Made by a program: the position numbers and the translations under genes
The notes under the pieces: generated by a model
Told to the model about the DNA's origin: nothing
The model's input: the letters and a program-made list of their open reading frames with translations, nothing else
Database searches by the model: none
Assembly: GCA_943354905.1 (NCBI GenBank)
Contig: CALRDL010000001.1
Coordinates: 29,520 to 93,519, forward strand
Direction: 5' to 3'
DNA: 64,000 nucleotides
Origin: Candidatus Nomurabacteria bacterium
Lineage (GTDB): Bacteria > Patescibacteriota > Minisyncoccia > Phycocordibacterales > UBA9973
Part shown: positions 1 through 61,977 of the stretch, piece by piece
Layout of the letters: each line of letters starts with the position of its first letter
Position numbering within the stretch: position 1 is the stretch's first letter

Positions 1-1679
1 TCCGGCAAGTCGAGCCCTTCACGAAGTAAATTTACTCCGACTAAAACATCAATCTCTCCTTTTCGAAACTGAGTCAAAATTTTTATTCTATCCATGGTCT
101 TAATGTCACTATGCAAATATTCAGCTTTGATTTTCTTTTCTTTTAAATAGACAGAAAGATCTTCGGCCATTTTTTTTGTAAGTGTCGTTGCTAAAACCCG
201 AAAACCTTTTTTAATTGTTTTCTCTGCCTCAGAAATAAAATCTTGGACTTGTCCCGCGTAGCCTTGGCGTAGTGGGATCTGCCCCCCTTCGCTAAAGCTT
301 CGAGAGGGCGTTACTGGTCTTACAACCAGTAACGGATCTACTAGTCCAGTCGGACGAATAATCTGCTCCACAATTTGCTCACTCGTCGTGCGTTCCATTT
401 CGCTTGGTGTCGCAGTTGTATATACCACCTGACCAATTCTTTCTTCAAATTCATTGTATGTAAGTGGTCTATTGTCCTTTGCTGAAGGCAAGCGAAAACC
501 ATATTCGACAAGTGTTTTTTTGCGTGAAGCATCCCCAGCATACATACCACTCAGCTGAGGTAGGGTGACATGTGATTCATCAACTATAGTAAGAAAATCT
601 GGTACCAGATTTTCTTTTCCACCTTGCCTCCCCCTTAATAAGGGGGAGGTGCCGAAGGCGGAGGGGGTATGCGGAAAGTAAGACATGAGTGTTTCTGGTG
701 GCTCACCTTCTTTTTTGTCTGACAAATGTCTGGAATAATTTTCAATCCCACTGCAATAACCCACCTCTTTTATCATAGCCAAATCATAATTCGTTCTTCT
801 TTTAATTCTCTCTGCTTCTAATAGTTTTCCCTCTTTCCCAAACTTTTTTAACTGGACAGCTAATTCTTTTTTAATTTCTACTAAAGCTTTTTTCTTTTTT
901 ACATCTTCAGTTATGAAATGTTTAGCTGGAAAAATAAAAATACCTGCCCGTCCTTTGGCGGGTTTTATTTCTTCAATTATATGCGAAGAAATTGGATCAA
1001 CTTTTATTATTTTTGAAATTTCTCCCCCTTCCATTTCTATCTGATACATCACTTTCTCTGATACCGGCATGAATTCGACTCGCGTGCCAATGGAACGGAA
1101 AGTTCCGGGGTTTAGATCAGCATTTGTTCTTTCAAAATGTATAGCAATCAATTTTTTCATCAAAGTCATCCTATCCATCTTCATACCTATTTCGAGTTTT
1201 AAATTTACTTTTTCATATTCTAGAGGAGAACCTAAACCGTAAATACAAGAAACAGAAGCCACAATAATAACATCCGGCCTAGAGAGCAAAGCTTGAGTAC
1301 TCGCATGCCTAAGCATATCTATCTCTTTGTTTATAGACGCATCTTTTTCAATATAAGTATCCGACGCCGGCATATAGGCCTCTGGTTGATAATAGTCATA
1401 ATAAGAAACAAAATAATGCACTGCGGAATCAGGAAAAAATAATTTAAATTCTTGAGCCAATTGAGCAGCCAGAGTTTTATTGTGAGCTATCACCAGGGTC
1501 GGCTTATTATATTGAGCTATCACGTTAGCCATAGTAAAAGTCTTCCCCGTGCCTGTAGCCCCGAGTAAAGTTTGCTTCTTCATCCCACTCTCGAGCCCTT
1601 GCACGAGCTTAGAAATAGCCTCTGGTTGATCTCCAGCAGGTTCAAATGGGCTATGTAATTTAAATATAGGTTTAGGCAT
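1..1679 (-). CDS. uvrB: Excinuclease ABC subunit B, N-terminal ~560 aa; the C-terminus lies beyond the window edge. Carries an in-frame 63-nt palindromic insert.
   Basis: Reverse-strand translation from the ATG at 1679 gives MPKPIFKLHSPFEPAGDQPEAI..., a Walker A motif (GATGTGKTFTMA) and ...DFLTIVDESHVTLPQ. No stop codon occurs before position 1. Confidence 0.85.
   Translation of the reverse strand, partial: MPKPIFKLHSPFEPAGDQPEAISKLVQGLESGMKKQTLLGATGTGKTFTMANVIAQYNKPTLVIAHNKTLAAQLAQEFKLFFPDSAVHYFVSYYDYYQPEAYMPASDTYIEKDASINKEIDMLRHASTQALLSRPDVIIVASVSCIYGLGSPLEYEKVNLKLEIGMKMDRMTLMKKLIAIHFERTNADLNPGTFRSIGTRVEFMPVSEKVMYQIEMEGGEISKIIKVDPISSHIIEEIKPAKGRAGIFIFPAKHFITEDVKKKKALVEIKKELAVQLKKFGKEGKLLEAERIKRRTNYDLAMIKEVGYCSGIENYSRHLSDKKEGEPPETLMSYFPHTPSAFGTSPLLRGRQGGKENLVPDFLTIVDESHVTLPQLSGMYAGDASRKKTLVEYGFRLPSAKDNRPLTYNEFEERIGQVVYTTATPSEMERTTSEQIVEQIIRPTGLVDPLLVVRPVTPSRSFSEGGQIPLRQGYAGQVQDFISEAEKTIKKGFRVLATTLTKKMAEDLSVYLKEKKIKAEYLHSDIKTMDRIKILTQFRKGEIDVLVGVNLLREGLDLP
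619..669. repeat. Family B GC-rich palindromic element, in frame inside uvrB
   Basis: Sequence ccaccttgcctcccccttaataagggggaggtgccgaaggcggagggggta. It is translated as ...YFPHTPSAFGTSPLLRGRQGGKEN..., between the conserved YFP and DFL(T)IDESH motifs. Confidence 0.7.
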
Positions 1680-4069: not shown

Positions 4070-4762
4070 CTAAAAAACTTTTAATAAAAATCTCTCGAAA
4101 GCACTCTCAGCATCAAGTCCAACACTGCGAGCTTCGGGTAAAAGATAACTCAGTTTTTTAGAGATATCTATAAGTTCTTTTTTAGAAAACTTATGAAAAT
4201 CTCCCGCCCGAACGGCCGAACTCATTCGGTCGGGCGGGTTTTTCAAGATCATATCTTTTATTTTCCAGAACAGTATCCCTATCAGCTCTTCCATCACCAC
4301 CCCTTTATCCACTGCTTGCCTAAAATAAATCCAAAGATTTATCTTGTCTTTTTGTCCAAAAGCATCGGCCAGTAAAAAATTGTTGAATTTCTCTTTTTTT
4401 TCTTTTGATAATGCGAACATATTTATCTCCGCCCGAGCTTTTTTAAAAGCATCCAGTATTGGCTTATTTAATTTCCCTTCCAAAAAGATGAAAGAATTTT
4501 TTGATTCACCCATGAATGTCAATTTTTCTAAAATAAATTCCTCACTATCTTCACTGATTTCATTGGCTAAAACGTTTTCTAAAATTATATTTGAAAGAGG
4601 AGAAAACATACTGTAACCAGAATACAGGCTTTCTATCTCCATTTTATTAAAATTATTTCTATTTACAAAAAAAGTTTGAGCCTCACTTTCTATAGACTTT
4701 AGAAATTTCTCATAACTCGTCCGTTTAGCTTTGGCATCATCTCCAGTAAAAAGATATATCAT
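4070..4762 (-). CDS. holA: DNA polymerase III delta subunit-like (short form)
   Basis: The MIYLFTGDD... N-terminus is typical of HolA. Length is 230 aa. Contains an in-frame Family A palindrome. Confidence 0.5.
   Translation of the reverse strand: MIYLFTGDDAKAKRTSYEKFLKSIESEAQTFFVNRNNFNKMEIESLYSGYSMFSPLSNIILENVLANEISEDSEEFILEKLTFMGESKNSFIFLEGKLNKPILDAFKKARAEINMFALSKEKKEKFNNFLLADAFGQKDKINLWIYFRQAVDKGVVMEELIGILFWKIKDMILKNPPDRMSSAVRAGDFHKFSKKELIDISKKLSYLLPEARSVGLDAESAFERFLLKVF
4203..4238. repeat. Family A palindromic element (CCCGCCCGAAC...TCGGGCGGG), in frame in holA
   Basis: Sequence cccgcccgaacggccgaactcattcggtcgggcggg, translated as ...MSSAVRAGDF... Confidence 0.65.
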
Positions 4763-9367: not shown

Positions 9368-11977
9368 TTATTTCACTTCCCCAAAATTGTCTCCGGAGCC
9401 TGAGTGGACTATGAGCGGGATGTCGGTCTTGTATTCTAAATACGATCTCGAAAGAACCGTTTGCATAGCATTTTTAATTATCTTTTCTGCTTGGTCTAAA
9501 ACTCCTTCTTCGACTTCGTACACGAGTTCATCATGAATCTGCAAAACTAGATGCACTCTATCAAGTAGGCCAGCACTTTTCAAATCTTCATGAGAATATC
9601 TGATGGCTAGTTTAATAATGTCGGCGGTGGCTGTGCCCTGGATGGGTGCATTTGTGGCTGTACGCTCGGCCATGTTTTTCAAAAATGGAATCCTAGAATT
9701 TATATTTGGAAAATATCTCCGCCGTCCAAACAAAGTTTCCGTAAAACCATTTTTAGTGACATCAACTTTTACTTTTTCTAAATAATCTCGCACCCCAGAG
9801 AATTGATTGAAATAATTATCATAAAACTTTTGGGCTTCTTCTCTAGTTCCACCCAAATTTTTCCGCAGAGAGGAAACTCCCATACCATAAATAATTCCGA
9901 AGTTTATTACCTTAGCCTTGCGACGCATTTCGTGGTCAACTTTGTCGATAGGCACTCCAAAAACAAAAGACGCCACTCCAGAATGAATATCTTTCCCCTC
10001 TTTGAAAATCTCAGTCATTTTTTTATCTCCAGAAAGCATCGCTGCGACACGCAACTCTATCTGACTATAATCAAAAGTACAAAGCTTGTAACCCTTTTGG
10101 GCTATAAAACCTGCTCGAATCCTCTTGCCGAGCTCGGATTTTATTGGAAGATTTTGTAAGTTTGGATCGATAGAAGAAAACCTACCGGTGGTAGTAGCAT
10201 TTTGTAAAAATTTAGAATGAAGTCTATTATCTACTCCGACCATTTTTGGAATCACATCGATATATGTCGAAAGCAATTTTTGAAGTTCTCGATAAGAAAG
10301 TATTTCTGTAATAATCGGATTTTCTTCTTCAAGTTCTTCAAGAACTGAAACTTTAGTAGATAAATTTCCACTGGCTCCTTTTTTCTTGGACTTCATCCCC
10401 ATCTTCTCAAAGAGAACAACGCCTAATTGCTTCGGGGAATTAATGTTAAATTCCGTACCAGCCATTTCATATATTTTTTTGGTTAAAATATCTAGTTCAA
10501 TATGATATTCTTTTGAGAGTTTTTCAAAATATTTTTGATCGAGCATTATGCCGTGATCTTCCATCTCTTTGACTATAGGAATTATTGGATGCTCGATCTC
10601 TTCATAAACTTTTTCAAGTTTTTTTTCACTCAATTTCTTAAAAACATATTCGCGAGCTTTTTCGAAATCACTTGTATTGGCCTGCCCGACTGAATAGTCG
10701 TTCGGGCGGGAGAAATTTAAAATATCCTCCAAGCTTGGATTGGAGATATCAGAGTTCACTAGCCAGAGAGCTATGCTGGTTTCTTGAAGCTTAAGAGGAT
10801 CCGCAGGAAGACGCTCGGGAATAGCAGAATACGAATTTAGCAGAATTTTCTCGGGTCCTCGGGTCGCCCCTAGGATTCTCCGTCGGGGCTCAACCAGACC
10901 AGCTCGAAAATTCTCTAAATTCGTATTCTGCTGACTTGAAAAAAAACTTTTCAATCTTGAAAACAAAGACCTAAATTCAAAGAAATTAAATATTTGTTCA
11001 ATTTTTTTAAAATCTGCATTTTCCCAAAAAGTTTTTTCTGGAATTTTAAAATTGATCGGTGCATCTCTGCGTATTGTCGCTAAAGTTTTCGAAAAAAGTG
11101 CTTCTTCTTCGTTGTTTTTTAAAAGCTCAATCATCCGTGGACTAATACCCGCTTTTAAAAAATCTTCATCCCCGCCCGAACGACCGTCCGGTCGGGCGGG
11201 TTTTTTTAATTTTTTATAAATATCTTCGATGGTTCCAAATTTACTGATTAAAATTTCTGCAGTTTTTTCGCCTATGCCTTTGATGCCGATGATATTGTCT
11301 GACGGATCTCCGCGAAGTCCCTTGTAGTCTGGCAAAAAAACCGGTTTAAAATTAAAACGTTCTACGACTTTTTCTTCATCATACAAAATAGTGTCGTTAA
11401 TACCTTTTTTAAGAGTGTAGACTTGAACCTTTTTATCATCGATGAGTTGCATCGTATCCATATCTCCGGAAGCAATGATGATATTTATACCCCCTCCGCC
11501 CTTCGTCAAGCTCAGGGTACCTCCCCTATTTTTGGAGGGGACATAGGGGGAGGTCAAGTGGGGGCGCAATTGCGCCACTATAGTACCAAGCACATCATCC
11601 GCCTCGAAACCCGGTGCATCATAAATCGGAATATTAAAAGCTTCGAAGATTTGGCGAGAATTTTTTAGTTGCGTTATGAGAGCTTCATCGGTCTTGGCTC
11701 TCCCTTTTTTATATCCATCATAAGCCTCATGCCGAAAAGTTTTTTGTGGTAGATCATAACAAGCCACGATATAGTCTGGCTTCAAATCTACAATGATCTT
11801 CATCAACATTGTAGACAACCCATACAAAGCCCCAGTCGGCTCACCTTTAGAAGATAGAAAGTCGGGAAGGGCATGATAGGCTCGATGAATTATCGCGTGC
11901 GAATCCAAAAGGACTAAAGTTTTGGGCTGTTTACTATTTTGCTCATTTTCTTTAATTTCTTTAGTTTCTTTGGACAT
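9368..11977 (-). CDS. polA: DNA polymerase I (5'-3' exonuclease plus polymerase domains)
   Basis: 869 aa. The N-terminus LVLLDSHAIIHRAYHAL and the C-terminus ...RVHLVLQIHDELVYEV with YGMG and IIKLAI motifs fit PolA. It hosts three in-frame palindromic inserts. Confidence 0.9.
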   Translation of the reverse strand: MSKETKEIKENEQNSKQPKTLVLLDSHAIIHRAYHALPDFLSSKGEPTGALYGLSTMLMKIIVDLKPDYIVACYDLPQKTFRHEAYDGYKKGRAKTDEALITQLKNSRQIFEAFNIPIYDAPGFEADDVLGTIVAQLRPHLTSPYVPSKNRGGTLSLTKGGGGINIIIASGDMDTMQLIDDKKVQVYTLKKGINDTILYDEEKVVERFNFKPVFLPDYKGLRGDPSDNIIGIKGIGEKTAEILISKFGTIEDIYKKLKKPARPDGRSGGDEDFLKAGISPRMIELLKNNEEEALFSKTLATIRRDAPINFKIPEKTFWENADFKKIEQIFNFFEFRSLFSRLKSFFSSQQNTNLENFRAGLVEPRRRILGATRGPEKILLNSYSAIPERLPADPLKLQETSIALWLVNSDISNPSLEDILNFSRPNDYSVGQANTSDFEKAREYVFKKLSEKKLEKVYEEIEHPIIPIVKEMEDHGIMLDQKYFEKLSKEYHIELDILTKKIYEMAGTEFNINSPKQLGVVLFEKMGMKSKKKGASGNLSTKVSVLEELEEENPIITEILSYRELQKLLSTYIDVIPKMVGVDNRLHSKFLQNATTTGRFSSIDPNLQNLPIKSELGKRIRAGFIAQKGYKLCTFDYSQIELRVAAMLSGDKKMTEIFKEGKDIHSGVASFVFGVPIDKVDHEMRRKAKVINFGIIYGMGVSSLRKNLGGTREEAQKFYDNYFNQFSGVRDYLEKVKVDVTKNGFTETLFGRRRYFPNINSRIPFLKNMAERTATNAPIQGTATADIIKLAIRYSHEDLKSAGLLDRVHLVLQIHDELVYEVEEGVLDQAEKIIKNAMQTVLSRSYLEYKTDIPLIVHSGSGDNFGEVK
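10681..10710. repeat. Family A palindromic element, in frame in polA
   Basis: Sequence cctgcccgactgaatagtcgttcgggcggg. Confidence 0.6.
11171..11200. repeat. Family A palindromic element, in frame in polA
   Basis: Sequence cccgcccgaacgaccgtccggtcgggcggg, translated as KKPARPDGRSGGDE. Confidence 0.65.
11491..11577. repeat. Family B compound palindromic element, in frame in polA
   Basis: Sequence ccccctccgcccttcgtcaagctcagggtacctcccctatttttggaggggacatagggggaggtcaagtgggggcgcaattgcgcc, translated as ...PYVPSKNRGGTLSLTKGGGG... Confidence 0.65.
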
Positions 11978-15136: not shown

Positions 15137-15652
15137 ATGCGAATTTTGGGAATCGATCCGGGTTTTGAACGACTTGGGATTGCTATATTAGAAAAGCCTA
15201 GCATAGGAGTTTCCTATGACTCCATAGGAAACTCCTATGCGAAACATAAAGAGAAAGTTATTTTTTCTACTTGCTTCAAAACTTCAGCTAAGTTGGAATT
15301 TTCAGAACGTTTGAAATTGATCGGTGAAGAAGTGAAAAAAGTAATTCAAGAATACAAACCAGATGTACTCTCCATCGAAACTTTATTTTTAAATACAAAT
15401 CAAAAGACAGTGATGCGGGTCGCCGAAGCACGGGGTGTATGTATTTATGAAGCCAAACTTGCAAATTTGCAAATCTTTGAGGCCACCCCACTCCAGATCA
15501 AGGTAGCCATCACTGGCTATGGACGATCTGACAAAAATCAAATAAATAAAATGGTACATATGCTCGTCGATATCGACAAAAAAACAAAATCAGACGACGA
15601 ACTAGATGCTATCGCTATCGCATTAACAGCTTTTGCACACCTAAAGTATTGA
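15137..15652 (+). CDS. ruvC: Crossover junction endodeoxyribonuclease RuvC, with an in-frame palindromic insert
   Basis: MRILGIDPGFERLGIAIL... and DAIAIALT motifs. Confidence 0.85.
   Translation: MRILGIDPGFERLGIAILEKPSIGVSYDSIGNSYAKHKEKVIFSTCFKTSAKLEFSERLKLIGEEVKKVIQEYKPDVLSIETLFLNTNQKTVMRVAEARGVCIYEAKLANLQIFEATPLQIKVAITGYGRSDKNQINKMVHMLVDIDKKTKSDDELDAIAIALTAFAHLKY
15201..15240. repeat. Family C perfect palindrome (CATAGGAGTTTCCTATG-N-CATAGGAAACTCCTATG), in frame in ruvC
   Basis: Sequence gcataggagtttcctatgactccataggaaactcctatgc, translated as SIGVSYDSIGNSYA. Confidence 0.75.
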
Positions 15653-22717: not shown

Positions 22718-22788
22718 AAACCTCACCCCCAGCCCCTCTCCTTGAAAAGGAGAGGGTGGCCCAGATTCTTCTGGGTCGGGTGAGGTTT
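22718..22788. repeat. Compound GC-rich palindromic element in the dnaA-rpmH intergenic region
   Basis: aaacctcacccccagcccctctccttgaaaaggagagggtggcccagattcttctgggtcgggtgaggttt shows nested inverted repeats. Confidence 0.55.
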
Positions 22789-22825
22789 ATTTGCTTAAAG
22801 TGTAATTTTATTATAGACTAACTAT

Positions 22826-24342: not shown

Positions 24343-24843
24343 ATGAATGATCAAGATATTCAAAATTTAATAAAAGAATTACTTGAAAAAATAAAAGTGA
24401 ATGTAGAAAGTATTTCTTTAGAAGAAAAAGACGGTTTAAATAAATGGTTTTCTATTGAAGTAAAAGAACCACATTTTTTTATTTCAAATGATGCTGAAGC
24501 TCTTTATGCACTCAATCATCTTGTGCGTAGGATGGTGGAAAAGAATCTCTCAGGAAATCCTCTCCAAGACTCGGAGAGAGGCGAAGGGGTGAGGCCAGAG
24601 GGTTCGATCTTAATCGATATAAATGGTTTTCAAAAAAAACGGGTAGAAAATACTCAAGCTATTGCTCATATGATGTCGGAGCGAGCTAGATATTTCAAGG
24701 CTAATGTCGAAGTCGACCCTATGTCAGCTTTTGAGCGAAGAATAGTCCATGAATTTTTATCTAATGCTACAGATCTAAAAACTGAATCTATGGGTTTTGG
24801 CCCATCTCGTCGGGTGGTTATAAAGTACGTTGGAACAATTTAG
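24343..24843 (+). CDS. jag: Jag/KhpB-like KH plus R3H RNA-binding protein
   Basis: C-terminal R3H motif FERRIVHEFL. Follows yidC. Confidence 0.65.
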   Translation: MNDQDIQNLIKELLEKIKVNVESISLEEKDGLNKWFSIEVKEPHFFISNDAEALYALNHLVRRMVEKNLSGNPLQDSERGEGVRPEGSILIDINGFQKKRVENTQAIAHMMSERARYFKANVEVDPMSAFERRIVHEFLSNATDLKTESMGFGPSRRVVIKYVGTI

Positions 24844-24899: not shown

Positions 24900-26330
24900 T
24901 TATTTAAGATCCAATTTCCACAAATAAGAATCTTTTTTGTTTACAAAAAGTAAATAATTTTCATTTTCATCTATTGCGAGTTTAATACCATCAATCTCTT
25001 CTCCTGCCAATATCGGATCTGCTAGTATGGTTGCATTCCCAGTTTTAATATTAATTTTCCATAATTCATCACTAAAAGATACTTCTCCTTGATACCAAGT
25101 CTCTGGATATTGACCAGATGGTATGACTTTTGGTACAGCACAATAGATATTATCCCCTATTTTATTCCAAACACACTTTTCTGGGAGAGTTCTAACTCCG
25201 AGCAAAATAGAATTTCTTGTGTCGGTCTGATATGCATTTAAAGCTAGGTCAGTACCACTAAAAAGGATTATTTTCCCATCAGGACCACTGAGAGTCGTGA
25301 GTCCATTTATGTCACCCAAAGCTCTGGTTGGATTTTTTTTGTTTGGATCCATTGTATACACGTGTCCTGTGGCTCTAGAATCAGCTTTAGTAGTCAAGGT
25401 GATGAGTTTATCATTTGGCCAGAGAGATAACCATTCAGTAAAATCAGAATCAAATATTTGAACTTTTTTATTGTCTACTAAGTTTAAAATCGTACCTATT
25501 ATATTTTCTCCAGAAGTATTTCCGTTTGTGAATAGATAAAAAGCTTTTAAAGTATCAGGTGAAATACTTATATCTTGCACATTGTCTGGTAAGAATGTTC
25601 CTTTTATTTCTTTATCCCCTGTTTCTGTTTCACTTACTATTTCTTTGGGTAAATTACCAACAAAAGTTGATATGGTGTCACCATATATTTTTAGATAACG
25701 CAAAATGACTGTTTGTCCATGATTGCCAAAATACGCTTCGTATACTTTCGGTATTGTTGGTAAAGAAAATTTTCGTTCAGAGATTTTGTCTAGAAAAGTT
25801 TGATAAATCGAACCATCTGATCGAGCTACGTATCGGACAGCTTCTGTAAATTCTGTTGGTTTTGGAGTTGGAGGCATTGGAGGAGTTAGTGAAGCTGGTG
25901 TTTTCTTTTTTTCTGTAGTCGTATTTTCTGGAGGTGCTGGAGGAGTCGCGGTTTTTCCCTCTCCTTTGGGGAGGGTTGGGGAGGGGTTATTTTGATCTAG
26001 GGTTAATTCTATTATTGGTATCTCTTTAAATCTTTCCTTAGAAAAAATTCCATAACCAGCTATCGGCATAGTGGAAATTTTTCTTAATTTTGGAATTGGA
26101 CTATCTGGTATAATTACCTCGCCATCTATATTTATTGGTGGAAGGTCTTTATCAGGATTTGAAGGAGGTGTATTATCTTTTCTAAATGGATTAAATCTTG
26201 AAAGAAAATTTGTGCCACCACTGTCAGGAACCCCAGATGTGTCCCCTCTCGGTTGCATATACAAGAACAAAACGACTAGGGCTATCACTAGACTCAAGAT
26301 TATTATTAAAAGTATAAAATTTCTTTTTGA
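24900..26330 (-). CDS. Membrane-anchored hypothetical protein with a Pro/Thr-rich linker and a C-terminal repeat-like domain
   Basis: Probable start at MSKRNFILLIIILSLVIALVVLF (signal anchor). The ORF table extends it to 26435 through an alternative upstream start. Confidence 0.4.
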   Translation of the reverse strand, partial: SKRNFILLIIILSLVIALVVLFLYMQPRGDTSGVPDSGGTNFLSRFNPFRKDNTPPSNPDKDLPPINIDGEVIIPDSPIPKLRKISTMPIAGYGIFSKERFKEIPIIELTLDQNNPSPTLPKGEGKTATPPAPPENTTTEKKKTPASLTPPMPPTPKPTEFTEAVRYVARSDGSIYQTFLDKISERKFSLPTIPKVYEAYFGNHGQTVILRYLKIYGDTISTFVGNLPKEIVSETETGDKEIKGTFLPDNVQDISISPDTLKAFYLFTNGNTSGENIIGTILNLVDNKKVQIFDSDFTEWLSLWPNDKLITLTTKADSRATGHVYTMDPNKKNPTRALGDINGLTTLSGPDGKIILFSGTDLALNAYQTDTRNSILLGVRTLPEKCVWNKIGDNIYCAVPKVIPSGQYPETWYQGEVSFSDELWKINIKTGNATILADPILAGEEIDGIKLAIDENENYLLFVNKKDSYLWKLDLK

Positions 26331-46258: not shown

Positions 46259-47122
46259 TCACCTTAAAGTTTTTACAAATTCTATCCAATCTTTGAGAGT
46301 TAATTCTTCCGCTCTTTTGTTCCCTAATAACACATAGGAGTTTCCTATGCCATAGGAAACTCCTATGTGTTTGAGGTTGCCAGACAGTTTTTTGCGCTTG
46401 TGAGCGAAGCCAGCTTTGACTATTTCCCAAAATTTTTGCTCAAATTCCAGACTGTTCAAAGCTTTATTTTGAACTTCGCTCCGTCCTCCCCCTTGCGAAG
46501 GGGGAGGTGTCCTGAGTTCATCGAAGGGCGGAGGGGGTAAAGTAATGAAATTTTTTCTTGAAATATTATTTATACTGATGACTGCCGAGTCTACCTTTGG
46601 TGCAGGAGAGAAATATCTGGCTGGAACTTTCATAATAAGTTTCGGATCACCATAAGCTTTTACAGAAATAGAAAGAATACTTTCCTTGCCATCGCGAGCC
46701 ACTATTCTTTTTGCCACTTCATTTTGGACCATCAGCACCATGCTAGTAGGCTGATGTTTGTCTGTTAAAAACTTTTTCAAAATCGCTCCAGTTATATTAT
46801 ACGGAATGTTGGCGATGATTTTATATTGCGTTAGGTCTTGCCTAACGCAATCAAAGTCGAGAATATCTTCATGTACTAGTACGAGAGAACGAGACTCTAT
46901 TTCTTTTGCAAATTTATCTTTCAAAAATTCAAAAAGATCATTATCTTTTTCTACGGCTATAACTTTTGCTCCTGTTTGTAAAAGTTTCTCAGTGAGTGCG
47001 CCCTTACCAGGACCTATTTCCAAGATTACATCATCTTTTTTTATCTCTCCTGCTTTGACTATATTATTCAAGGCTGGAACCGATTTTAAGAAATTTTGTC
47101 CCAATGATTTTTTTATTTTCAT
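46259..47122 (-). CDS. rsmA: 16S rRNA (adenine1518/1519-N6)-dimethyltransferase, with two in-frame palindromic inserts near the C-terminus
   Basis: LGQNFLKS and LEIGPGKGALT motifs. Confidence 0.85.
   Translation of the reverse strand: MKIKKSLGQNFLKSVPALNNIVKAGEIKKDDVILEIGPGKGALTEKLLQTGAKVIAVEKDNDLFEFLKDKFAKEIESRSLVLVHEDILDFDCVRQDLTQYKIIANIPYNITGAILKKFLTDKHQPTSMVLMVQNEVAKRIVARDGKESILSISVKAYGDPKLIMKVPARYFSPAPKVDSAVISINNISRKNFITLPPPPFDELRTPPPSQGGGRSEVQNKALNSLEFEQKFWEIVKAGFAHKRKKLSGNLKHIGVSYGIGNSYVLLGNKRAEELTLKDWIEFVKTLR
46332..46368. repeat. Family C palindrome, in frame in rsmA
   Basis: Sequence acataggagtttcctatgccataggaaactcctatgt, translated as HIGVSYGIGNSYV. Confidence 0.7.
46482..46539. 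repeat. Family B palindromic element, in frame in rsmA
   Basis: Sequence cgtcctcccccttgcgaagggggaggtgtcctgagttcatcgaagggcggagggggta. Confidence 0.7.
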
Positions 47123-53861: not shown

Positions 53862-54005
53862 ATTTTTTTATTTAAGCTAATAAATTATTGTTTATATTAT
53901 ACACCAATTAAATATGTTTTAGATATTTGTAATACCATTATACCATAAAGATGTGCATTTTGTCAAGTATTTATTTTTAGATTTTTTAAATCAAAACGCA
54001 AAAAG

Positions 54006-54050
54006 GCCGTACGCTGGAGTTGGGAATACCAACGGCGTACGGCCTTTCGA
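54006..54050. terminator. GC-rich hairpin at the left edge of the high-GC island
   Basis: aggccgtacgctggagttgggaataccaacggcgtacggcct. Confidence 0.45.
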
Positions 54051-54106
54051 TTGATTTGGTTGATGTGTGTGCCGGCCCACGATTGTAGGTCGGCAATAAA
54101 GAACAA

Positions 54107-55141
54107 TTAAAAGGCTTCGATTTTCACCTGAGCCCCGGCTTTTTTTAGCCGGTTTTCAAGGTACTTGAGCCCCTTTTCCATCAGCGCTGGTCGTGAGACC
54201 GGGAGCGGATGGAGGTGGACAGTGAGTCCTTTCAAGTTGAGTGCGCCGATGTCGGCGATCTGGTCTAACTTTGACCAGTTCGCCTCCTCAAGAAGCTCTG
54301 GGTTTTTGTAAACCGAGGCTTCAGGAAGATTTTCGAGCCCATCTGTAAAAATGTGGAGCTTAGGACGTGAGTCCTTGTTCTCCATCATTTCTTTTAGGAT
54401 GGGCATGAGGCCACGCAGGACGGAGCTCTTGGGCTTTGCTTTCCCTTCCACTAGCCAGTCTGTGCTGGCTTTTACTTCGGCTTCCATACCAAGATTTGGA
54501 CGTTGCCGTCCCCCTTGGTAAGGGTCCTCGGAAATGTGATATAGGTTAAGCGCGATTTTGTTTTTGCCGTCAGCTCCGAGCTGTACGGCTCGGGTCTCGT
54601 CAACAATCTGACGAACCCGTTTGGCTAAGTCGTCACTGACACCCTCGGTGGTGTCGAGCGCGACTCCAAACGCCCGCTTGATCGCGACCGGGCCGGTGAA
54701 GGCCTCGATCGCTTTTGCCAATTCGGGCTGGGAGCCGGTGAGCTCTTTCCTCCGATTCGGCCGGGTCGTTTGCTCGAACTTTAGCCAGCCTTTCAGCTGG
54801 AAAATGTTCGAGGATAGGATCTTGTCACCGTCCTTTGTGACGAAGGTCAGTTTCAGTCCATACCCACCCGGCTCTTCCGGCGTGGGGCGTTCGGCGCCGT
54901 AGCGTTTGAGGCTTTTGGCGCTGAACTTCTTTGATTCTTGCAAGAAGATGTCCGTTAAGCGGACACCTTCCGTGGAAACGAGGGTGCTGGCGTCGATCGC
55001 CAACCCCCCGTCCGCTTCGACTTCCCGTTCGAAAACGAGGAAGTCTTCTTTGGGGGTGTACTTCTCCCCCCAAAGGAACATCGTGAGTCCGATCGCCGCA
55101 GCCAGTATGGCTACGGACGACAGGACCAGTTTTTTGTTCAT
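54107..55141 (-). CDS. GC-rich hypothetical exported protein, possibly vWA-like
   Basis: N-terminal anchor LVLSSVAILAAAIGLTMFLW. PKLHIFTDGLEN resembles a vWA segment. Assignment weak. Confidence 0.45.
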   Translation of the reverse strand: MNKKLVLSSVAILAAAIGLTMFLWGEKYTPKEDFLVFEREVEADGGLAIDASTLVSTEGVRLTDIFLQESKKFSAKSLKRYGAERPTPEEPGGYGLKLTFVTKDGDKILSSNIFQLKGWLKFEQTTRPNRRKELTGSQPELAKAIEAFTGPVAIKRAFGVALDTTEGVSDDLAKRVRQIVDETRAVQLGADGKNKIALNLYHISEDPYQGGRQRPNLGMEAEVKASTDWLVEGKAKPKSSVLRGLMPILKEMMENKDSRPKLHIFTDGLENLPEASVYKNPELLEEANWSKLDQIADIGALNLKGLTVHLHPLPVSRPALMEKGLKYLENRLKKAGAQVKIEAF

Positions 55142-55162
55142 TGCTTCTGTTCCTTTCCGCCC

Positions 55163-56773
55163 CTAGAACTTAGGGGCCCTCCACGCTTTTACCGGCGCGG
55201 GGGCGGGTGGTGGTGGAGGTGCGGGTTTTGCAACCTCAAGGGCCGCTTTCTCCGCCTCCGCTTTTTTTCCTGCAATCAGTTCTTCCGTGATTTTTGCAAG
55301 GGTTTTTTCCGTTTCCGCTATCGTCATGACGCGGACTGAAATGTTTTCGTTTGCCGGCGTCGTCGTGACGGCTTCCATGTCGGCGATAAGGCCGGCAGGG
55401 AGATCGATCGAGAACACCGGCTTGTTGGCGTTGAAATTGGCGACGAGTTCGTCGTCGCTTTCCGTTGAGTTGCTGGTTCTTGCCACCATTTTTTCAATGG
55501 CTTCGCCGAATTCATCGACGAACCACTTGGGTGACTGGCCGAACTCATGTGCGAGCCGGCGAATCGTGGCGATGCCGTGGTTGTGGGTCTCTTTGGCTTC
55601 TTTTGCCAGCGCGAGCTGGTGCTGGAATTCTGTGTGGTAGACATTGTAAGCGCCCTGTGCGTCCGGAGACGTGACAGTCGCTTCCAATTCCACTAACTGC
55701 TTTGCCAACGCTTCCGCCTCTACCTTCTTGGCCATGGCGGACTCGGCTTGCGGGTGGGTGGTGGTTGAAAACACCGCTTCCCAAGCGTACAATACCGCGA
55801 ACACTAACACTACACCAAACGATCCGGCGATGTCGCCAGTCTGAGTCATCATAACCCAGCGGATGCCGAGGGTTCCGAGGATAGTCATGGCCATTAGCCA
55901 GAACCACATCCTGTGCTTAAACTCCGCGTCGCCAGACAGAGTGAAAACCGAGACTGACTTACCCGTCAAGGGGTCTACCCCGTTCGGAAAAGTTTCTCTC
56001 AGTTGCTGAGTAGCGTTGCAAAGGTCGAGTTCCACCTTCATGGCGGAACCAGCGAAGTAGGTGGTTATGGATCCCGCCATGCTCACTAGGAGCGAGAAGG
56101 CGAGGGCCATCGATTGGTTTCCTTGGTCTTGAAGTATTGGTGCGTTGAACACCACTTCAAAAAACAAGGATATCGCGAATGCCGCGGTCACGGGGAGCCA
56201 AGATGCTGGTCCAGTTTCCGGAGCATTGATTGCGAGGTTTGGGTTGCCGTTGATGCCGATTGCCAACCGGCGTGCCTCAAGGAAGGCATCTTTTGCCTTG
56301 ACCTGGAGGGTGTCGATGGCGGCGAGGCCCGCCTGGGCGAAGCCTTTTAGCTTGCTGGCGAAGTCCGTGGTGAGTTGGTTGGGGTTCGGTGTTGGCACAT
56401 CCTGTGCCTGACGAACCTTTTGAATCGCGTTGCCGAGCGTCTGCTCGGCAAAGGCTTTGTATCCAGCGAAGAGATCGCTGAACATCTGGGCCACTTCTTC
56501 GAACAGAACCGATATTTGACCCGGGGCATACGTGCCCCCGAGCCCCTCTACTGCCTGGACGAGTGCTGGCATGTGCGGGGTGACGACGACCTGAGGGTCG
56601 AGGGTTACCACACTTCTAACGACGGGCTGGATGTTGTTGTTTTCGGTCACTGCGGCCGGAGCCGAGGTGCCGATTTTTAAGGACGTAGTGCCCCGTCCGG
56701 GCACCAGCTGGAGCAGTCGCCTGCTCCAGCTTTTGAGTTTTTCTCTCATTTTTTTTACCTTTTCTTTTGTCAA
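55163..56773 (-). CDS. GC-rich hypothetical membrane protein with four predicted transmembrane helices and a poly-Pro C-terminus
   Basis: 536-aa ORF with transmembrane segments at ~200-330. C-terminal PAPPPPPAPAP. Confidence 0.45.
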   Translation of the reverse strand: MTKEKVKKMREKLKSWSRRLLQLVPGRGTTSLKIGTSAPAAVTENNNIQPVVRSVVTLDPQVVVTPHMPALVQAVEGLGGTYAPGQISVLFEEVAQMFSDLFAGYKAFAEQTLGNAIQKVRQAQDVPTPNPNQLTTDFASKLKGFAQAGLAAIDTLQVKAKDAFLEARRLAIGINGNPNLAINAPETGPASWLPVTAAFAISLFFEVVFNAPILQDQGNQSMALAFSLLVSMAGSITTYFAGSAMKVELDLCNATQQLRETFPNGVDPLTGKSVSVFTLSGDAEFKHRMWFWLMAMTILGTLGIRWVMMTQTGDIAGSFGVVLVFAVLYAWEAVFSTTTHPQAESAMAKKVEAEALAKQLVELEATVTSPDAQGAYNVYHTEFQHQLALAKEAKETHNHGIATIRRLAHEFGQSPKWFVDEFGEAIEKMVARTSNSTESDDELVANFNANKPVFSIDLPAGLIADMEAVTTTPANENISVRVMTIAETEKTLAKITEELIAGKKAEAEKAALEVAKPAPPPPPAPAPVKAWRAPKF

Positions 56774-57252
56774 GTTCTGCCAAAGACTGCTGGGTTCTTC
56801 TTCCAGTCACCTTTGAAGTAGTACAAGATATTAGTACTATGAATTAACCCATATTTATAGTATAGCACTTATTTATCTAAATGTCAAGCTGAATATTGCT
56901 ATGTTTTATAAAATGTAGTGTAATAAAGACCATTGAGTTATCCCCACATTCCCTCTTTTCGATTGACTTTCGACCCTCTTTTGTTATCATATAGGAGTAC
57001 CCATACACCTAAATAAATAGGTGTTCGGGTATAGTTCTGAATAGAGGAGATGGTACAAGATGGCAGATAAGCGGACCCGACAGTAACCATCGTAAGAATC
57101 TTTTTTTACAGCACAATTTCGGTCGTACTGTATTCTAGCCTTACATTAAAAGGTCAGAAAGGAAATCTTACGGTAAATTTGTTTGTTTTATAAAAAACCT
57201 ATTTAACATATACAGTGCTACGCAGACTAAATCTTTTGCCCTAAAGGGTATT

Positions 57253-60169: not shown

Positions 60170-60240
60170 GCGGTTATGGTTTAGTGGTAGAACACGTCCT
60201 TGCCAAGGATGAGACGGGAGTCCGATTCTCCCTAACCGCA
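60170..60240 (+). tRNA. tRNA-Gly (anticodon GCC)
   Basis: GCGGTTATGGTTTAGTGGTAGAACACGTCCTTGCCAAGGATGAGACGGGAGTCCGATTCTCCCTAACCGCA. Confidence 0.8.
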
Positions 60241-60252
60241 CAAAATAGATTG

Positions 60253-61977
60253 AACACAATCAAAAAAAATTTAAAAATAGATCTACTGAATAAAATCCCA
60301 AAAGAAGTTTCACATGTAACAAGTACGCTCAGAAAAGCAGGTTTTGAGGTTTTTTTGGTTGGAGGTTGTGTAAGGGATTTATTTCTTGATAGAGAACCAA
60401 AGGATTGGGACGTCACTACTAATGCCAAACCAGAGCAGATCATAGCCCTCTTTGAAAAGACTGTATATGAGAATACTTTCGGTACAGTCGGCGTAGTTGT
60501 TTCCCGTGAAACGGCTACACCTTCAAATCTCCACCTTGTGGAGGGGGAGATGCCGAAGGCAGAGGGGGTAATAGTGGAAGTCACCCCATACAGAATTGAA
60601 GCAAAATATAGCGATTTTAGACATCCTGATGAAGTAAAGTTTAGTGATAATCTAACAGATGACCTTAAAAGACGTGACTTCACCATTAACGCAATGGCTA
60701 TAGATTCTAAAGGACCCGCCCAAAGTCTAAAGGACATTGAGTCTGGCTGGCATCTAACTGACCTTTATGAAGGTATAAAGGACATAGAAAATAAAACATT
60801 ACGGACAGTGGGGAGTGCGGATGAGAGATTTAATGAAGATGCATTGCGAATGCTTCGGGCTGTGCGTTTTGCTTGCCAATTAAATTTTTCTATTTCTTCT
60901 GAAACTACAGAAAGTATTTTAAAAAATTCTAATTTGATAAAAGAAATTTCTTCAGAAAGAATTCGAGATGAATTTATAAAAATAATTTTATCAGATAATC
61001 CGGCAAGTGGTTTAGTTATGTTGCAAAAATTTGGATTATTAAAAAATATTATTCCTGAGCTTGAAGAGGGGATAGGTTGCGAACAATTAGGAGAACATAT
61101 CTATGATGTTTGGGACCATTTGCTTCATGCTCTCCAGCATGCAGCGGACAAGAAATGGCCTTTAGAAATAAGGCTTTCTGCTCTTTTTCATGATATTGGG
61201 AAGCCAAAGACTCGACGAATCGCTTCGCAGGAAAATGCTTTCCGTCATTCGCACTCTGTCCTGGAAGTGCAAGATAGTTCTGTTCGTAGCGAAGATTCCT
61301 CCAAGCATATTCCTGCTACACTCTCTCCCCGTGAGTCCGAGAATATTTTGTCCCCCAAGAGTAAAAAGAAATATACATTTTATGGTCATGAAGTTGTCGG
61401 TGCAAGAATAACGAAAAAAATAATGGAGAGATTAAAATTTTCTAAAAAAGAAATTGATCTGGTGGAAAAACTTGTTCGCAACCACATGTTTTTTTCTGAT
61501 ACTGAGCTTATCACTCTCTCTGCCGTGCGAAGAGTCGTTACTAAAGTCGGAGTAGATAATATTTGGTTTCTAATGAATGTCCGTGAATGTGATCGAGTGG
61601 GAATGAAAAAGAAAGAAGCTCCTTATCGCTTGCGCAAATATTTTGCTATGATCGAAGAAGCCCTCCATGACCCTATTTCCGTAGGAGCCTTGAAAATAAA
61701 CGGTGAATTTATGATAAAGGACATGTCCATTAAACCCGGACCACGCATGGGTTGGATGTTGAACGCACTTCTTGAAGAAGTCCTTGAAGACCCGAAAAAA
61801 AATACGATAGAATATCTAAAGGACAAAATTTTGGAACTCGAAAAACTTTCTGACGCAGAATTGAAAGCCCTTGGGGATAAAGGGAAAGAAAAAAAAGAAG
61901 AACTCGAAGAAGAAGAAGTCGAAAAACTTCACGCTAAGCATGGAGTGAGATCGGGTAAAGGTGAAGCAAAGAAGTAA
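60253..61977 (+). CDS. cca: tRNA nucleotidyltransferase (CCA-adding enzyme, head domain plus HD domain) with two in-frame inserts and an acidic C-terminal tail. The start is uncertain (non-ATG).
   Basis: LVGGCVRDLFLDREPKDWDVTT, RDFTINAMA, HDIGKP. The ORF-table start at 60184 lies inside tRNA-Gly, so a downstream TTG near 60253 is assumed. Confidence 0.75.
   Translation, partial: NTIKKNLKIDLLNKIPKEVSHVTSTLRKAGFEVFLVGGCVRDLFLDREPKDWDVTTNAKPEQIIALFEKTVYENTFGTVGVVVSRETATPSNLHLVEGEMPKAEGVIVEVTPYRIEAKYSDFRHPDEVKFSDNLTDDLKRRDFTINAMAIDSKGPAQSLKDIESGWHLTDLYEGIKDIENKTLRTVGSADERFNEDALRMLRAVRFACQLNFSISSETTESILKNSNLIKEISSERIRDEFIKIILSDNPASGLVMLQKFGLLKNIIPELEEGIGCEQLGEHIYDVWDHLLHALQHAADKKWPLEIRLSALFHDIGKPKTRRIASQENAFRHSHSVLEVQDSSVRSEDSSKHIPATLSPRESENILSPKSKKKYTFYGHEVVGARITKKIMERLKFSKKEIDLVEKLVRNHMFFSDTELITLSAVRRVVTKVGVDNIWFLMNVRECDRVGMKKKEAPYRLRKYFAMIEEALHDPISVGALKINGEFMIKDMSIKPGPRMGWMLNALLEEVLEDPKKNTIEYLKDKILELEKLSDAELKALGDKGKEKKEELEEEEVEKLHAKHGVRSGKGEAKK
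60531..60570. repeat. Family B element (half-deleted form), in frame in cca
   Basis: Sequence ccaccttgtggagggggagatgccgaaggcagagggggta. Confidence 0.65.

Follow-up and report, generated by a model that had tools for sequence, protein, structure and literature searches.

Short palindromic repeats inserted in frame in protein-coding genes have been described before. The Rickettsia palindromic elements (RPEs) are in-frame palindromic repeats of about 150 bp found in Rickettsia, and each family encodes a conserved peptide (Ogata et al. 2000, 2002, as summarized in PMC10969869 and PMC3733652). Intragenic members are also known among the repetitive extragenic palindromes (REPs) of the GTAG/CGTC type, with in-frame copies in uvrA/B/C/D, polA, recBCD, and dnaE (Di Nocera et al. 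2013, PMC3733652). This analysis concerns a 64-kb stretch of DNA from a Candidatus Nomurabacteria bacterium (GenBank assembly GCA_943354905.1, contig CALRDL010000001.1, positions 29,520 to 93,519), hereafter the window, in which a G+C-rich palindromic repeat, family B, lies in frame within uvrB, polA, rsmA, and cca. The closest proteins are those of Candidatus Nomurabacteria and Paceibacterota, members of the candidate phyla radiation (CPR). [quoted passage not shown]

The initial annotation of the window listed four in-frame copies and two related sites, and a covariance model search recovered all six, the latter two as weaker relatives (Table 1). The model, R1, was built from eight seeds, of which two are window copies, two belong to CPR-type relatives, and four come from further organisms, and it was searched across the entire window with filters off. 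Beyond the six sites it found only reverse-strand readings of the same hairpins or matches of at most 9.8 bits (E of at least 0.35), and the catalogue is complete in the window. The 13-mer GGCGGAGGGGGTA, allowing up to two mismatches, has four matches in the window compared to 0.40 expected, and none of 100 shuffled sequences reaches four. No further family B copy was found in the 3 kb to the left of the window. The elements are 43-81 bp in size. Their G+C content is 62-65%, inside the 60-70% first reported, while that of the window is 36.3% and not 33% as had been stated. The polA element is present where it was placed, but the last part of the range first given for it (11566-11577) is a separate, abutting 12-nt palindrome, GCGCAATTGCGC.

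Table 1. Host genes, family B copies, and weaker relatives in the window, with R1 scores.
Feature	Position	Strand	R1 score	Description
uvrB gene	1-1679	-		Continues past the first position of the window; start codon at 1679; P0001, 100% identity
polA gene	9368-11977	-		869 aa
rsmA (ksgA) gene	46259-47122	-		287 aa
cca / poly(A)-polymerase family gene	60184-61977	+		Start uncertain: listed GTG overlaps tRNA-Gly 60170-60241
uvrB copy	618-669 (R1 match 615-672)	+	79.5 bits, seed	Short subtype; 5' block TCCACCTTG 618-626; P1 627-649 (CCTCCCCCTT-AAT-AAGGGGGAGG); TG 650-651; mini-hairpin GCC-GAA-GGC 651-659; tail GGAGGGGGTA 660-669
polA copy	11485-11565	-	34.1 bits, E 8e-10, non-seed	Long subtype; P1 loop of 20 nt including CCCCTCC, the complement of the tail
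rsmA copy	46473-46542	+	61.8 bits, seed	Long subtype; P1 46485-46507; spacer 46508-46529; tail 46530-46539
cca copy	60516-60573	+	50.9 bits, E 8e-16, non-seed	Short subtype, decayed; mismatched P1 TCTCCACCTT-GTG-GAGGGGGAGA, then GCCGAAGGC, tail AGAGGGGGTA
dnaA-rpmH spacer relative	22722-22790	+	19.9 bits, E 9.5e-5	Outer stem ATAAACCTCACCC/GGGTGAGGTTTAT; P1 CCCCTCTCC/GGAGAGGG; TG; P2 GCCCAGA/TCTGGGT
Relative in ORF 24900-26330	25945-25992	+	19.5 bits, E 1.3e-4	Minimal (hairpin, TT, mirror tail): CCCTCTCC-TTTG-GGGAGGG-TT-GGGGAGGGG

The family B unit consists, from 5' to 3', of a C-rich block, a hairpin (P1), the dinucleotide TG, a small GAA-closed hairpin (P2), and a purine tail, GGAGGGGG-TA. 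The P1 consensus is CCTCCCCC(TT)-loop-(AA)GGGGGAGG, and the tail repeats the P1 3' arm in mirror image and is not complementary to it. The short subtype, found in uvrB and cca, has the spacer GCCGAAGGC and a P2 of GCC-GAA-GGC, while the long subtype, found in rsmA and polA, has the spacer G(T/A)(T/C)CCTGAG..CGAAGGGC. The P1 loop has only 3 nt in uvrB and rsmA (CCTCCCCCTT-AAT/GCG-AAGGGGGAGG). Outer repeats of the form TACCCC(C)WCC ... GGAGGGGGTA are clear in some loci outside the window (L036, L074, and the uvrC copy of L118), but in the window copies they are degenerate, being CCACC with an A-A mismatch, or absent. The relative in the dnaA-rpmH spacer is intergenic and follows the family B plan with another sequence and 13-nt arms. 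The minimal relative is in frame within the Pro-rich part of its open reading frame (ORF), which is on the reverse strand, and comparable elements flank DUF559 genes in L124, L127, and L200. Other proposed features of the unit were rejected. A 5' CCACCTTG block common to uvrB and cca was suggested by manual reading, but the R1 alignment places the cca stretch in the P1 5' arm. A hammerhead-like core in the long spacer was discarded because stem II is absent, and a tRNA-like 5' half was dropped on inspection.

The host reading frames are uninterrupted across the element in all four genes. The element is read in antisense in uvrB (TPSAFGTSPLLRGRQGG) and rsmA (LPPPPFDELRTPPPSQGGGR), and in sense in polA (...RGGTLSLTKGGGGI) and cca (LHLVEGEMPKAEGV; VEGEMPKAEGV). 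Each copy has three to six stop-free frames of the six possible, and the four copies use four different ones, so the peptide is not what is conserved or selected. Alignments with solved structures place the inserts at loops or linkers. UvrB has a clean 23-aa gap relative to the Bacillus protein in the Protein Data Bank (PDB), between the YFP and DFLxxDESH motifs, and solved structures do not have the segment. The gap in PolA is about 22 aa and falls in the 5'-3' exonuclease domain. RsmA has about 30 additional residues in the interdomain linker, and the CCA enzyme has about 12 in a variable hairpin loop. In the AlphaFold model of RsmA, which has a mean pLDDT of 85.8, residues 186-224 are coil with pLDDT of 43-64 between a strand (179-185) and a helix (225-238). 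The expectation that the inserts would fall in surface loops is thus supported, as is the claim that the element enters genes in frame without killing them, with no sign of pseudogenization.

The least probable of the explanations considered is that the inserts are untranslated, being either cut out of the mRNA or passed over by the ribosome. Coding gaps of this type are known, such as those of T4 gene 60 and the yeast mitochondrial 'byps', and the elements are G+C-rich and folded within an A+T-rich genome. However, all copies in the window and in relatives preserve the frame and are stop-free in the frame that is used, which would be unnecessary if they were skipped, and four lengths divisible by three would occur by chance only about once in 81 times.

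Comparison with orthologues shows that the inserts are lineage-specific indels. Most orthologues do not have them, including those of close relatives, and the inserted peptides are not shared by distant orthologues. At the YFP/DFL site of UvrB, the 120 closest orthologues comprise 58 that are short, 6 with family B, 31 with a commoner insert (..RRSHSVLEGQDSSGRSEDSS..), and 25 with other inserts. The RsmA linker is short in 20 orthologues and contains family B in 12 (10 antisense and 2 sense, the latter reading ..KGEVPKAEGV), while 80 have other inserts. The cca loop varies from 32 to 79 residues, and ..KGEMPKAEGV is found in 6 of 120 orthologues. Individual copies are lacking in close relatives, a possibility raised at the outset. 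At the DNA level, the uvrB copy is common to L118 and L120, while L122 has the empty site TTTCCGAAATCAGGATTTTTA; the polA copy is absent from both L118 and L122, where 21 codons are missing. A long-subtype copy in uvrC is present in L118 and absent from L122. The filled uvrB allele recurs across independent assemblies and samples (L203, L118/L119, and L120/L121), showing that it is not an assembly artefact. Two known types of insertion target were considered and rejected: the 5' junctions lack the TA of an IS630-type TA duplication, and an IS91-type CTTG target was dropped on inspection.

Family B is also found outside this lineage. A collection with one genome per species was scanned with the 15-base motif GAAGG(N)CGGAGGGGGTA, giving 117 loci, most of which are chance matches in G+C-rich genomes; the whole upstream architecture is present in only about 35. 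These full elements are found in Caulobacterales, Rhizomicrobium, Hyphomicrobiales, Rhodospirillales, Chloroflexota/Anaerolineae, Bacteroides, Alloprevotella, Flavobacteriaceae, Fibrobacterota, and CPR-type genomes. The insertions are specific to the lineage, but the family is not, and its presence in other phyla was missed in the initial annotation. In the larger genomes the copies are intergenic and in either orientation to their neighbors, and some form head-to-head dimers (L074, L056, L027, L028, and L059). In L094, a CPR-like genome with 32% G+C, a copy is again in frame, inside an ORF that on sequence inspection resembles an isoleucyl-tRNA synthetase gene. P2 shows compensatory changes (GCC/GGC, GGCC/GGCC, GACC/GGTC, GCCC/GGGC, and GTCC/GGAC), of which the scan pattern fixed the 3' side only, and in the alphaproteobacterial copies it is extended to a longer arm that contains a GUA/GAA internal loop. 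An all-against-all comparison of ORFs around the motif-found copies revealed no recurrent neighbor protein. In plasmid and phage collections, BLAST gave only partial hairpin matches. Sequestration of a Shine-Dalgarno sequence was rejected as a role, since both orientations occur and the distances to start codons are inconsistent.

The compensatory changes in P2, the strong sequence conservation across phyla, and possible G-U pairs in the uvrB copy could indicate a functional structured RNA, and the inserts could also be adaptive peptide loops. Both proposals are very improbable. The elements occur in both orientations relative to host and neighboring genes, they are read in four different frames, they have no consistent neighbor gene, and the inserts are missing from most orthologues. 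Rfam was searched with the window at the gathering threshold, with the uvrB site allowing E values up to 10, and with 18 foreign loci, and the only matches were tRNAs and chance microRNA-like ones.

Family B shares its behavior with known repeat classes but not their defining features. Like the RPEs, as far as the sources cited above describe them, it is a palindromic selfish repeat of a small genome that lies in frame within unrelated housekeeping genes and is compatible with folding of the host protein, and several families occur per genome. In this comparison, which is one of descriptions, family B differs in its size of 43-81 bp, its high G+C content, its use of four frames and both orientations, its mirror tail, its presence in several phyla, and its link to DUF559. 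The parallel with RPEs drawn in the initial annotation therefore applies to behavior, namely in-frame insertion in functional genes, but does not extend to membership, because of the size and the lack of a conserved peptide. With REPs, family B shares a short G/C hairpin followed by a short unpaired tail, head-to-head dimers, and a mainly intergenic location in large genomes, and the CGTC REPs likewise have no known transposase. It differs from REPs in having near-homopurine/homopyrimidine arms, a tail that mirrors the 3' arm, an extra GAA mini-hairpin, and a DUF559 neighbor instead of a REP-associated tyrosine transposase (RAYT). MITEs are similar in being short gene-less derivatives, and the outer repeats of the full copies in L036, L074, and L118 uvrC may correspond to the inverted repeats that bound MITEs. 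MITEs are also known to form in-frame fusions with host ORFs. Family B differs from them in having no target-site duplication, an outer repeat that is degenerate in the window, and a proposed partner with the fold of a restriction enzyme rather than a DDE transposase. Overall, family B behaves like an RPE or a REP but does not qualify as an RPE, a REP, or a MITE.

It is improbable that family B represents classical REPs or REPINs mobilized by a transposase of the RAYT type (Y1 HUH) whose gene lies in another part of the genome. Such an origin would agree with the hairpin form of the elements, with the head-to-head dimers in other phyla, and with the documented presence of intragenic REPs in uvrA/B, polA, and similar genes (PMC3733652). 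However, the GTAG/CGTC tag is absent: the element ends in GGAGGGGGTA, and all copies terminate in GGAGGGGG-TA, which only in some is followed by G. Pfam searches of 10 window ORFs gave no match to Y1_Tnp, no RAYT is present among the recurrent neighbors of the motif-found copies, and the gene that is recurrently adjacent to the elements is DUF559.

The association with DUF559 was found by reading individual loci. In the four first cases a small DUF559 gene is bracketed by elements: L001, from Caulobacterales, where family B lies on either side; L118, the relative closest to the window genome; L094; and L036. The assignment to DUF559 (PF04480) is clear, with Pfam scores of 113-126 bits against a cut-off of 20.6 (E 1e-33 to 1e-37). 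The nearest solved structure is PDB 3HRL (E 8e-29), and the protein has a Vsr-like core, E..DG..H..D, with invariant E64, D66, H70, and D77. The association was measured in the best 80 of more than 534 loci, taken from unbinned metagenomes. Perfect G/C hairpins occur at 2.54/kb within 250 nt of DUF559 and at 0.35/kb elsewhere; in low-G+C loci the values are 3.06/kb and 0.23/kb. Intergenic gaps contain a G/C hairpin in 25 of 38 cases when adjacent to DUF559 but in 3 of 27 other cases. An exact inverted repeat of at least 12 nt connects the upstream and downstream DUF559 flanks in 13 of 62 loci, compared to 2.6% of mismatched pairs. Matches to the family-B model are also concentrated there, with 73 of 89 within 250 nt of DUF559 (1.15/kb versus 0.069/kb, p = 5e-34) and at least one adjacent match in 58 of the 80 loci. 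True family B adjoins DUF559 in L001, L136, L150, and L123. The association is statistically solid, while its mechanism is unproven. In L118 the DUF559 unit is located between a type II secretion ATPase gene and ruvB, and it is missing from the syntenic 329-nt gap in the window, showing that the unit itself is polymorphic between relatives.

Several properties of related proteins are relevant to this association. The Vsr/DUF559/DUF2726 clade includes a proven homing endonuclease (PMC3424549, PMC3239194). That enzyme type is represented by I-Bth0305I, a Vsr-like 'EDxHD' homing endonuclease (PMC3239194), which resembles the DUF559 proteins in being a small Vsr-fold nuclease encoded by a selfish mobile gene, with DNA synthesis and repair genes among its preferred hosts. 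In contrast to the DUF559 proteins, I-Bth0305I has extra DNA-binding domains and its gene sits in a self-splicing intron. The DUF559 genes found here are free-standing, encode about 115 aa, and are bracketed by folded repeats, and the gene-less repeats are probably translated rather than spliced. DUF559 proteins have been found to be 14-fold enriched among the targets of predicted inversions (PMC9881135), which fits genes that are bracketed by inverted repeats.

Individual DUF559 loci have additional features. In L001 (6940-7640) the DUF559 unit and its flanking family B elements directly follow putative phage or gene transfer agent (GTA) head genes (prohead protease and major capsid, inspected at their N-termini only). 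Tandem arrays of hairpin-plus-mirror-tail units surround DUF559 in L134 (2570-3660, at least six units) and L170 (2380-3910, with G7/G8 versions). In L036 (6731-7170) the DUF559 frame continues across the palindromic element that lies downstream, which adds the C-terminal extension MQPSPGLSLIRARRNGKIKSL.

The mirror relationship between arm and tail is also found beyond family B. With homopolymers and self-mirror words excluded, the 80 DUF559 loci and the four first cases contain 304 hairpins whose 3' arm is purine-rich, and 70 of these have the mirror image of the arm within 55 nt downstream. When the pairs are permuted the count is 21 +/- 4, and the highest value among 200 permutations is 34. 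The rule holds for at least eight types of arm and tail: GGGGAGG/GGAGGGG and its converse, GGGGGAG/GAGGGGG, GGGGGAGA/AGAGGGGG, GGGAGGGA/AGGGAGGG, GGGGAAGG/GGAAGGGG, AGAGGGG/GGGGAGA, and GGGGGGA/AGGGGGG. The window copies also have the mirror within about 55 nt of the hairpin. In the cca copy three strands have changed in concert: the 5' arm is TCTCC.., the 3' arm is GGGGGAGA, and the tail is AGAGGGGG.

The sequence required for a purine-motif (G·G-C, A·A-T) intramolecular triplex, or H-DNA, is a purine strand that matches the duplex's own purine strand exactly and runs antiparallel to it. Applied to family B, this rule suggests that the element may fold into such a triplex. The C-GAA-G loop of P2 presumably corresponds to the unusually stable DNA mini-hairpin motif. 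As an alternative to the triplex, the tail could pair with the 5' C-block to form a three-way junction; this pairing is clear in L036, L074, the uvrC copy of L118, and the dnaA-rpmH copy, but it is degenerate in the uvrB copy. As a constraint the mirror rule is unusual and covaries among the variants, and it points to a hairpin-anchored triplex as the hypothetical substrate for recognition.

A mechanism for the spread of family B can be proposed from these results. The DUF559 gene, encoding a Vsr-like PD-(D/E)XK nuclease of about 115 aa and bracketed by modules, would be the autonomous partner. The nuclease may nick or cut the folded module, and copies would then spread via repair-dependent copying, by homing or gene conversion. 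The gene-less units in the window would be derivatives of the DUF559 system, either mobilized in trans or left behind. A copy inside a gene would persist only if it added a multiple of three bases, was stop-free in the frame used, and was located in a tolerant loop or linker. It would be translated as filler, Pro-rich in antisense and Gly/Arg-rich in sense, with no selection on the peptide. Repeated occupation of the same loops by different families may reflect either purifying selection acting on insertion sites or gene conversion that overwrites an older copy. A broader proposal, which falls somewhat short of even odds, is that these elements represent an unrecognized class of mobile DNA found throughout the bacteria. 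The DUF559 gene would be the autonomous form, its ends would consist of a hairpin and a mirror tail capable of forming a triplex, and ends without the gene would be REP- or MITE-like and translated inside essential genes of the sampled Paceibacteria.

The main rival to the DUF559-partner model is that the elements are landing pads. Free-standing DUF559 homing genes would enter palindromes that already exist, and the palindromes would themselves spread by template switching, gene conversion, or another transposase. This is unlikely, but it has more in its favor than the other alternatives. In its favor, the gene in L124 and L127 is enclosed by the two arms of a single compound palindrome, and P1 is duplicated on either side. 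On the other hand, the flanking copies usually form an inverted pair with their tails toward the gene (L123, L144, L138, L148, and L202), resembling the ends of a unit, and the association spans many sequence families and phyla.

Some observations count against family B being a selfish repeat with a DUF559 partner. No DUF559 gene is present within the 64-kb window and most motif-found copies have none nearby, both of which would also be expected of landing pads, and the association itself could equally result from DUF559 genes homing into elements. The selection of the best 80 loci from unbinned metagenomes is a further weakness, and model matches of about 20 bits reflect architecture more than sequence. 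The four junctions show neither a target-site duplication nor a defined cleavage site, with filled and empty sites compared in uvrB and polA. Translation of the inserts is inferred from the intact frames and is not observed. The AlphaFold model of UvrB is poor, with a mean pLDDT of 65 and values below 50 for both of its inserts.

The window contains other inserts and palindromes in the same genes. A second and commoner insert family encodes ..(R/H)SHSVLE(G/V)QDSS(G/V)RSEDSS.. and is in frame in cca at 61237-61311 (AFRHSHSVLEVQDSSVRSEDSSKHI); it is the family found at the YFP/DFL site in 31 of 120 UvrB orthologues, and it also occurs in the polA linker of L118. 'Family A' palindromes, CCCGCCCGAACG..CGGTCGGGCGGG, are located at 4203-4238 and 11164-11204. 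The second of these is in frame in polA (KKPARPDGRSGGDEDF), in a segment that is shorter in relatives. A third family of in-frame palindromes is perfect and A+T-richer, with arms of 21 and 18 nt (GCATAGGAGTTTCCTATG / CATAGGAAACTCCTATGC), and is found at 46329-46371 in rsmA (VSYGIGNSYVLL) and at 15201-15240 in ORF 15137-15652. In PolA, the linker that joins the exonuclease and polymerase domains (10852-10891) has a different G+C-rich insert in each of the window, L118, and L122. UvrB has a second lineage-specific insert of 18-20 aa at 255-314 (VTPSRSFSEGGQIPLRQGYA), which is absent from Bacillus UvrB, moderately G+C-rich, and of a different family. A perfect 13+13 palindrome, AAGAAAATCTGGT/ACCAGATTTTCTT, adjoins the uvrB element at 591-616, and one half of it consists of the native PDFL codons. 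It was considered as a footprint of hairpin opening and rejected, since that half is native and orthologues have HKENGEPDFL. More likely it was a pre-existing quasi-palindrome that has been corrected to a perfect one.

Other regions of the window are also unusual. In the R3H-domain ORF 24343-24843, a hairpin at 24559-24602, CCTCTCC-AAGACTC-GGAGAGAGG, is followed by CGAAGGGGTGAGG and may be a decayed member of the hairpin-plus-G-tail type. An IS66-family transposase ORF (2045-2881; Pfam DDE_Tnp_IS66, E 4e-36) separates uvrB/tRNA-Lys from the genes that follow. The region 54000-57000 is an island of 45-55% G+C in which ORFs 54107-55141 and 55163-56773, both on the reverse strand, have no Pfam match; it is possibly foreign DNA.

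In-frame palindromic repeats are already known from RPEs and REPs, and what is new here is the distribution across phyla, the mirror rule, and the link to DUF559. A search of one literature collection, which is no proof of novelty, found nothing on such elements in CPR genomes, on the mirror-tail architecture, or on a DUF559-repeat association. Family B is best classed with the selfish palindromes that are tolerated inside proteins, and the DUF559 and mirror results are potentially the larger lead. If the tie to DUF559 is true, it provides a testable function for a very common domain of 'unknown function', and it makes DUF559 a candidate mobilizing enzyme for REP-like repeats that have neither the tag nor a RAYT.

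The results also have implications for the biology of these bacteria. Where a genome is minimal and leaves little room between genes, selfish palindromes would persist through their translation as part of essential proteins. Among the Nomurabacteria/Paceibacteria orthologues examined, the same loops of UvrB, RsmA, PolA, UvrC, and the CCA-adding enzyme hold many types of insert, suggesting that length variation in these proteins is partly driven by parasites. Parasite-driven length variation bears on the annotation of such genomes, on phylogenetic alignment, and on structure prediction.

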